Assembly: GCF_058153355.1 (NCBI RefSeq)
Contig: NZ_JBLWLY010000002.1
Length of the DNA: 64,000 nt
Direction: 5' to 3' (one strand)
From: a plasmid
Part shown: piece by piece, positions 32,160 to 32,525 of the stretch
Position numbering within the stretch: position 1 is the stretch's first letter
Layout: each line of letters begins with the position of its first letter
Position numbers and translations under genes: made by a program
Notes under the pieces: generated by a model
What the model was told of the DNA's origin: nothing
The model's database searches: none
What the model saw: the letters and a program-made list of their open reading frames with translations, nothing else

Positions 32160-32525
32160 ATGGCCCGTTCAGCTAAACCACGCAAACGAAAACCTGCACC
32201 TCAAAGAAGCAAACTCCTCCGCTATGTCGTGAAACTTCACGAAGATGATTTTTTTGACGAAGAAGAAGCTGAGGTTCTGCGCTTTGATAATTTTGACGAT
32301 GCCGTTGAGTGTTGCGCAGACCTGAATATTCCGTTCTTTGTGGATGCCGGAAACAAAAAACTGGTCTTCTGGTTTGTACGTGTTGATGACGAAGGGTATC
32401 CGGAAATTGCCCGCTGCACGGAGCGGGAATTTGCGACAATTCCTGCCGGTATCAGCGCCGACGGCATGTATTGCCCTGAATGCGGTACGGTTCACTGGCC
32501 GGATGGCGTTATTCCGCCTTTCTGA
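32160..32525 (+). CDS. Hypothetical protein with basic N-terminus and C-terminal CPECG zinc-ribbon-like motif
   Basis: ORF from the second ATG (MARSAKPRKRKPAP..); moderate GC; no family assignment possible by eye. Confidence 0.4.
   Translation: MARSAKPRKRKPAPQRSKLLRYVVKLHEDDFFDEEEAEVLRFDNFDDAVECCADLNIPFFVDAGNKKLVFWFVRVDDEGYPEIARCTEREFATIPAGISADGMYCPECGTVHWPDGVIPPF

Follow-up and report, generated by a model that had tools for sequence, protein, structure and literature searches.

A small gene on a pINV-type plasmid is very probably orf121 of a dead IS91-like insertion sequence

Does the small open reading frame (ORF) at positions 32160-32525 encode a genuine protein, and of what kind? The ORF lies in the window, a 64,000-nucleotide stretch of a plasmid (NCBI RefSeq assembly GCF_058153355.1, contig NZ_JBLWLY010000002.1), and an earlier note, made from the letters alone, described it as an unassigned, zinc-ribbon-like small protein of about 120 amino acids. 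Reading the sequence, we found on the plus strand a frame of 121 codons followed by a TGA stop. The program-made list of ORFs gave a longer frame of 140 amino acids that starts at ATG 32103 and contains the shorter one. Because every homologue begins with MARSAKPRKRK, we placed the start at ATG 32160, yielding 121 amino acids; the start of the homologues together with the SD-like AGGCGG in front of this ATG shows that the boundaries given earlier were right. The first 21 residues of the product include nine Lys or Arg and no Asp or Glu, residues 22-50 include 12 Asp or Glu, and CPECG occupies residues 105-109 (nt 32472-32486). With a GC content of 49.9%, the ORF thus agrees with the earlier description in length, in its Lys/Arg-rich N-terminus, in the CPECG motif near the C-terminus and in its moderate GC.

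The gene and the copy in an intact IS91 differ at 35 nucleotides, and 28 of these changes fall at third codon positions; 26 were synonymous and nine non-synonymous (dN/dS = 0.076). The frame is short, the region is rich in pseudogenes and no curated family covers the product, all of which would suit a spurious ORF in IS debris. Such an ORF would hardly show a dN/dS of 0.076 or be conserved down to homologues of 29% identity with invariant Cys, His and core residues; the earlier note had taken lack of conservation anywhere as the sign of a spurious frame, and conservation is what we found. In addition, His-tagged Orf121, the protein with which we identify the product below, was detected by western blot and analysed by mass spectrometry (PMC13181058). 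The probability of a spurious ORF is negligible, and judged by the conservation pattern this explanation is already refuted. The same pattern marks the ORF as a real gene, far beyond chance.

Searching for relatives, we found that the protein is 93% identical over 121 of 121 residues (91.4% at the nucleotide level of the gene) to WP_000091308.1 of locus L004 (NZ_CP027222.1), a protein that precedes an intact IS91-family transposase in both L004 and L005. In L004, L005 and L006 the 121-amino-acid gene is followed, with a 1-base overlap, by an intact gene for a 395-amino-acid "IS91 family transposase". A tblastn search matched the protein to 1491 plasmid records, which come from Escherichia, Shigella, Salmonella and Klebsiella and for the most part show 90-95% identity, and the exact protein is present on at least 998 public contigs, with the UniRef name "IS91, orf2". 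In IS91, orf121 encodes 121 amino acids, lies upstream of tnpA with its stop overlapping the tnpA start, and was described as a gene that no other member of the IS91 family has (PMC13181058). The published motif numbering (V49, L55, V61, L68, V75, C105-X2-C108; PMC13181058) fits our protein exactly. Compared with Orf121 of IS91 (ORF121, "IS91 orf2"; reference X17114; Fauconnier et al., Commun Biol 2026, PMC13181058), the product shares its length of 121 amino acids, 93% of its residues and C105-X2-C108, and the gene shares its site between terIS and tnpA, its spacing from the terIS end, the TATAAA -10 box and the TGATG overlap. The ORF, which had been called unassigned, is therefore assigned: it is very probably the accessory gene that an IS91-type rolling-circle (HUH/Y2) insertion sequence carries as orf121, with the regulatory role of that gene and within an element that is dead. 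Gene, position and role were already known, having been published in 1992 and 2026.

The allele of the window differs from WP_000091308.1 at eight of 121 residues, including L20, P94 and D101. Compared with canonical IS91, the -35 box of PtnpA has changed from TTGCCG to CTGCCG, and this change gives L94P in Orf121. The altered PtnpA site (32443-32448) departs from the published TTGCCG without consequence for a dead tnpA.

How far does the family extend? A word-indexed search returned 233 family proteins, and an exhaustive profile search of 1.84 billion representatives gave 78 matches at 50% clustering, mostly fragments of the Orf121 family, and no wider superfamily. By these searches the family appears narrow. 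Scans of Orf121 against Pfam and NCBIfam gave no family above the cut-off. Full-length homologues at 60-70% identity occur in Salmonella, Kosakonia and others, and one homologue (P0181) is 29% identical. In each of these homologues the stop is overlapped or directly followed by another gene, which is an IS91-family tnpA wherever the contig is long enough; these tnpA genes carry Zn_Tnp_IS91 and Y2_Tnp. The 1-nt overlap of stop and start is present in most of the 60-70% group, and it occurs in the divergent homologue loci L011-L019. Since the overlapping or abutting neighbour is tnpA across the homologues, synteny with tnpA is a property of the whole family. Two further proteins, P0122 and P0179, carry 5 to 35 RanBP2-type zinc-finger repeats and match the Orf121 profile only at positions 90-117, the CPxCG knuckle. 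We rejected homology of these eukaryote-type repeats to Orf121, the similarity being limited to the knuckle motif.

Aligning the surroundings of the gene with the intact IS91 of L004 by blastn, we obtained two blocks: 32071-32594 of the window corresponds to 2912-3435 of L004 at 91.4% identity, and 32579-33190 to 4125-4740 at 83.2%, and positions 3436-4124 of L004 are absent from between them. An alignment of seven loci set the left boundary at CGAG, where similarity begins, and the right boundary is ...TTCCTATCGAT at 33190, as in L004. The features of the element are collected in Table 1.

Table 1. Features of orf121 and of the IS91-like element that carries it, in positions of the window.
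Feature	Position	Strand	Details
Defective IS91-like insertion sequence	32072-33190	+	1119 bp against ~1.83 kb for intact IS91; order terIS, orf121, deleted tnpA, oriIS
terIS end	32072-32094	+	Terminal CGAG at 32072-32075; bottom strand 5'-CTCG
Subterminal hairpin	32079-32094	+	GCGGCC (32079-32084), TGAC, GGCTGC (32089-32094); read from the sequence and from alignment with six other IS91-type left ends
Porf121 promoter region	32098-32126	+	-10 TATAAA at 32121-32126; candidate -35 TTGTCA at 32098-32103; 17-nt spacer
Perfect 7-nt inverted repeat	32130-32146	+	AGACAAT-atc-ATTGTCT; from repeat search; between -10 box and SD
SD-like, purine-rich AGGCGG	32150-32155	+	Precedes ATG 32160
orf121	32160-32525	+	121 codons plus TGA stop (32523-32525)
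Knuckle C105-P-E-C108-G-T-V-H112	32472-32495	+	Invariant across family alignments
TGATG, orf121 stop / tnpA start	32523-32527	+	TGA 32523-32525, ATG 32525-32527; one-base overlap; translational coupling signal
tnpA pseudogene	32525-33002	+	Codons 1-23 fused to 252-395; 5-nt deletion and frameshift between 32753 and 32754
Deletion junction	32579-32594	+	16-nt imperfect microhomology CTGGAGAAGCAGCCGG, common to both deletion sides; overlap of the blastn blocks
oriIS end	33109-33194	+	Ends ...GGGATTTAAATTCCTATCGAT at 33190; flank GGAC (33191-33194), 5'-GTCC on the bottom strand, a target-type tetranucleotide

The left end, which aligns across the seven loci, places the ATG of orf121 88 nt from the terminal CGAG, upstream of tnpA and in the same direction. 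The cleavage tetranucleotide of terIS is 5'-CTCG (PMC13181058). The stem of terIS is a perfect GCAGCC in the six other aligned loci, and the A to G change in the window leaves G.T in the top strand and C.A in the bottom strand. The TATAAA box is identical between the window and close IS91 copies, and mutating this -10 box of Porf121 lowered expression 18-fold (PMC13181058); the upstream TTGTCA is a candidate -35 box. A generic sigma-70 scan of the sequence did not report Porf121, which it missed because the -10 box ends in A. The inverted repeat downstream of the promoter is conserved in close IS91 copies, where the variants AGGCAAT (L006) and AGATAAT (L002) keep G.U-compatible pairing; in the left-end alignment it was not recognisable in the lineage of 64% identity. 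The repeat probably serves as an operator or folds into a hairpin in the 5' UTR of orf121; the G.U-compatible variants, two in number and hence a small sample, give a hint in favour of the RNA hairpin over the DNA operator.

Downstream of orf121, the TGATG overlap of stop and start corresponds to that described for IS91 (PMC13181058), and codons 1-23 of tnpA match intact TnpA at 100% identity. When the 395 amino acids of intact TnpA were compared with the locus by tblastn, only residues 1-23, 252-311 and 314-395 were matched. The ORF that overlaps the end of orf121 matches the C-terminal part of IS91-family transposases (Y2_Tnp, NF033538), and Pfam found in the tnpA remnant only positions 113-170 of the Y2_Tnp profile. 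The deletion of ~690 bp removes TnpA residues 24-251, and with them the Zn_Tnp_IS91 domain (residues 17-104), HPHIH at 157-161, Y249 and Y253. At the other end, the last 82 bp of oriIS suffice for function (PMC13181058), and the right flank of the L004 copy is CAAG, i.e. CTTG, the canonical IS91 target. Together, these features indicate that the element is dead as a transposon and that orf121 and its promoter are intact.

Published work counts as IS91 isoforms those copies with at least 95% nucleotide identity over the entire IS and a complete TnpA (PMC13181058). The host element, a diverged relative with 91% nucleotide identity in its left part and 83% in its right part, with an internally deleted tnpA, AGGCGG in place of the SD AGGTAG and one mismatch in the terIS stem compared with canonical IS91, falls outside this definition. 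On its sequence it is an IS91-like relative and a remnant, not a strict IS91 isoform, which concerns the element and not the protein.

The earlier classification as zinc-ribbon-like was then weighed against the conserved residues. The protein has only one CxxC knuckle, C105-x2-C108, and its other Cys and His residues are C51, C52, C86 and H112. In an AF2 model the knuckle sits in a beta-hairpin (strands 103-105 and 110-112). C52, C105, P106, C108, G109, T110 and H112 are invariant even in the homologue of 29% identity and C86 is not; also conserved in the family are the basic arm (S4, K6-K11) and core residues from 55 to 91. Compared with classical zinc ribbons (the TFIIB N-terminal ribbon; PF12172 zf-ChsH2), Orf121 shares a CPxCG knuckle that lies close to the C-terminus in a predicted beta-hairpin, but it is without the second knuckle, and its other invariant candidate ligands are C52, at a helix end 50 residues upstream, and H112. 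This arrangement makes a CCCH metal site (C52, C105, C108, H112) plausible in place of a two-knuckle zinc ribbon. Zinc-ribbon matches were all sub-threshold, with zf-ChsH2 at E 0.019 in the Pfam scan and TFIIB and bL32 at E of ~1 in a sequence-profile search of the PDB, and a structure search with Orf121 found no fold match. With one CxxC knuckle, no family past the cut-off and no fold match, the zinc-ribbon claim is unsupported. The first reading, in which the ORF encodes an independent transcription regulator that binds DNA as a zinc ribbon and has nothing to do with the IS debris, could draw on the basic N-terminus, the CPxCG knuckle and those weak profile matches. We consider it very improbable, since the second knuckle, a family match above threshold and a structural match are all missing, and since in every lineage examined the gene is coupled, physically and translationally, to an IS91-family tnpA inside IS ends.

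What, then, would orf121 do? In canonical IS91, Porf121 drives most of the expression of tnpA, which also profits from the overlap, and transposition falls when Orf121 is provided, whether in cis or in trans: 8.6-fold if the protein comes from an independent promoter and, in the native arrangement, by up to ~8000-fold (PMC13181058). Canonical Orf121 also decreases one-ended transposition from ~50% to 18-32%, reduces insertion of the bottom-strand circle and sharpens cleavage at terIS; this role was derived from mating-out assays, counts of one-ended transposition and promoter fusions, and its authors offer competition with TnpA for the ends or direct interaction of Orf121 with TnpA as modes of action (PMC13181058). 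Mendiola et al., as cited in the same paper, described insertions in orf121 without effect on transposition frequency. In an intact element, orf121 is transcribed from Porf121 inside the terIS end and translationally coupled to tnpA via TGATG. As shown for the canonical protein, its product lowers transposition by TnpA, the step in which the bottom-strand ssDNA circle inserts among the rest, and makes termination at terIS (5'-CTCG) more accurate, leading to less one-ended transposition that drags neighbouring DNA along. Conservation suggests that the basic N-terminal arm and the Cys/His site (C52, C105, C108, H112) may mediate binding to the hairpins of the IS ends, to TnpA, or to both. By analogy with the canonical protein, to which it is 93% identical, the allele of the window may have the same inhibitory role. 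The earlier suggestion of a small DNA-binding or regulatory protein stands in its regulatory part, canonical Orf121 being an inhibitor of IS91 transposition (PMC13181058).

As pointed out in PMC13181058, Orf121 resembles InsA of IS1 and OrfA of the IS3 family in being a small protein that is encoded upstream of the transposase and damps transposition. Unlike these, to which it has no relationship in sequence or fold, Orf121 belongs to an HUH/Y2 rolling-circle element with hairpin ends, and its binding to the ends is putative, whereas InsA and OrfA bind the terminal inverted repeats of DDE elements via an HTH.

Is the copy in the window a relic, or has it been retained? A 121-mer spanning the deletion junction matched 134 plasmid records end to end at 99% identity or more, and those sampled are invasion plasmids (pINV) of Shigella and EIEC; outside these 134 records it matched only over bases 1-65, up to the junction. 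Given that icsA, virA and ushA are found in the neighbourhood in relatives, we concluded that the window is from a pINV-type plasmid. No intact copy of this isoform was found in plasmids or in E. coli genomes, the best match outside the pINV copies with the same deletion being at most 87.4%; for the 3' part of tnpA the best non-pINV match was at most 85.5%. The copies of S. sonnei differ from the element in the window by a handful of bases. In pWR501 of S. flexneri 5a, the alignment starts only at 32262, beside IS4, and orf121 is broken, indicating that it is dispensable there. Searching the literature for IS91 on plasmids of Shigella yielded hits to IS911 only. Having lost residues 24-251, among them both catalytic tyrosines, the HUH motif and the zinc-binding domain, and being frameshifted besides, tnpA leaves orf121 an intact orphan with its promoter. 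The copy in the window is most probably a young relic that has no partner in cis and at most acts in trans on other IS91 copies.

It is possible that selection has kept the orphan, either as a brake that acts in trans ("immunity") on IS91-type elements, whether incoming or resident, or because it was co-opted for other regulation. The gene and its promoter are intact next to a destroyed tnpA, the exact protein is found across plasmids of S. sonnei, S. dysenteriae, S. boydii and EIEC, and other orphans exist (ETEC p948, pCFSAN004178P_02 and L019). Orf121 inhibited in trans in the published assays (PMC13181058), and targets are common, with IS91-like DNA in 1488 of 5426 complete E. coli genomes. 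However, over the full length of the element the pINV copies are no more than a handful of bases apart, so that 363 nt could stay intact without selection; the strong dN/dS signal predates the deletion; the disruption in pWR501 has no known consequence; and a tblastn of intact TnpA found no other IS91-family transposase in the window. Retention by selection is thus unlikely. We are equally doubtful of its more specific form, in which the orphan would be kept as a brake in trans on IS91-type elements that limits the scrambling of the virulence region by one-ended transposition, its CCCH site and basic arm recognising the hairpins of ssDNA ends or TnpA. A young relic remains our preferred account.

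Intact orphan orf121 genes without a full tnpA in L002 (ETEC H10407 p948), L003 (pCFSAN004178P_02) and L019 lie beside virulence genes (etpB, sta1, ehxCA), and remnants made up of terIS and orf121 seem to be a common feature of virulence plasmids.

The value of these results for discovery is small, and their practical value lies in annotation. Databases hold no Pfam or NCBIfam family for Orf121, and RefSeq labels it "hypothetical protein" or "transposase". About a quarter of complete E. coli genomes carry IS91-like DNA, yet Orf121 is without a curated family, and as long as it stays uncurated, scans will keep flagging it. Two by-products may serve work on the mechanism, namely the family-invariant residues, C52, C105, C108 and H112 and not C86, and the orphan copies beside virulence genes on pINV, ETEC and EHEC-type plasmids.

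The earlier note placed the ORF between intron and IS remnants; in fact it is itself part of an IS remnant, the defective IS91-like element at 32072-33190, which has a fragment of a group II intron to its left and the remains of an ISL3 element to its right. The intron fragment (~30979-31900) contains a group-II-D1D4-2 RNA match (31481-31599) as well as reverse-transcriptase ORFs (RVT_1) that are broken, and ~170 bp of AT-rich DNA (39% GC) separates it from the IS91 left end. At 32048 the window is without 10 bp that pINV of S. sonnei carries. Further upstream lies an IS3-family remnant (29961-30850; HTH_Tnp_1 and HTH_21 ORFs) with a full-length ALIL pseudoknot frameshift element at 30241-30357 (120.8 bits). 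On the right, over 33191-34199, the IS91-like element adjoins the ISL3-family remnant (DDE_Tnp_ISL3, 33126-33768, in two frames), which is followed by an IS110-family remnant (Transposase_20, 33862-34062). An ORF of 238 amino acids at 34784-35500, in DNA of ~36% GC, has the look of a multi-pass membrane protein, matches no Pfam family and is unrelated to orf121. A second IS91-like fragment, at 63474-63844, lacks orf121 and consists of the 3' end of tnpA (amino acids 339-395, 73% amino acid identity) and oriIS, with ~79% nucleotide identity to IS91.
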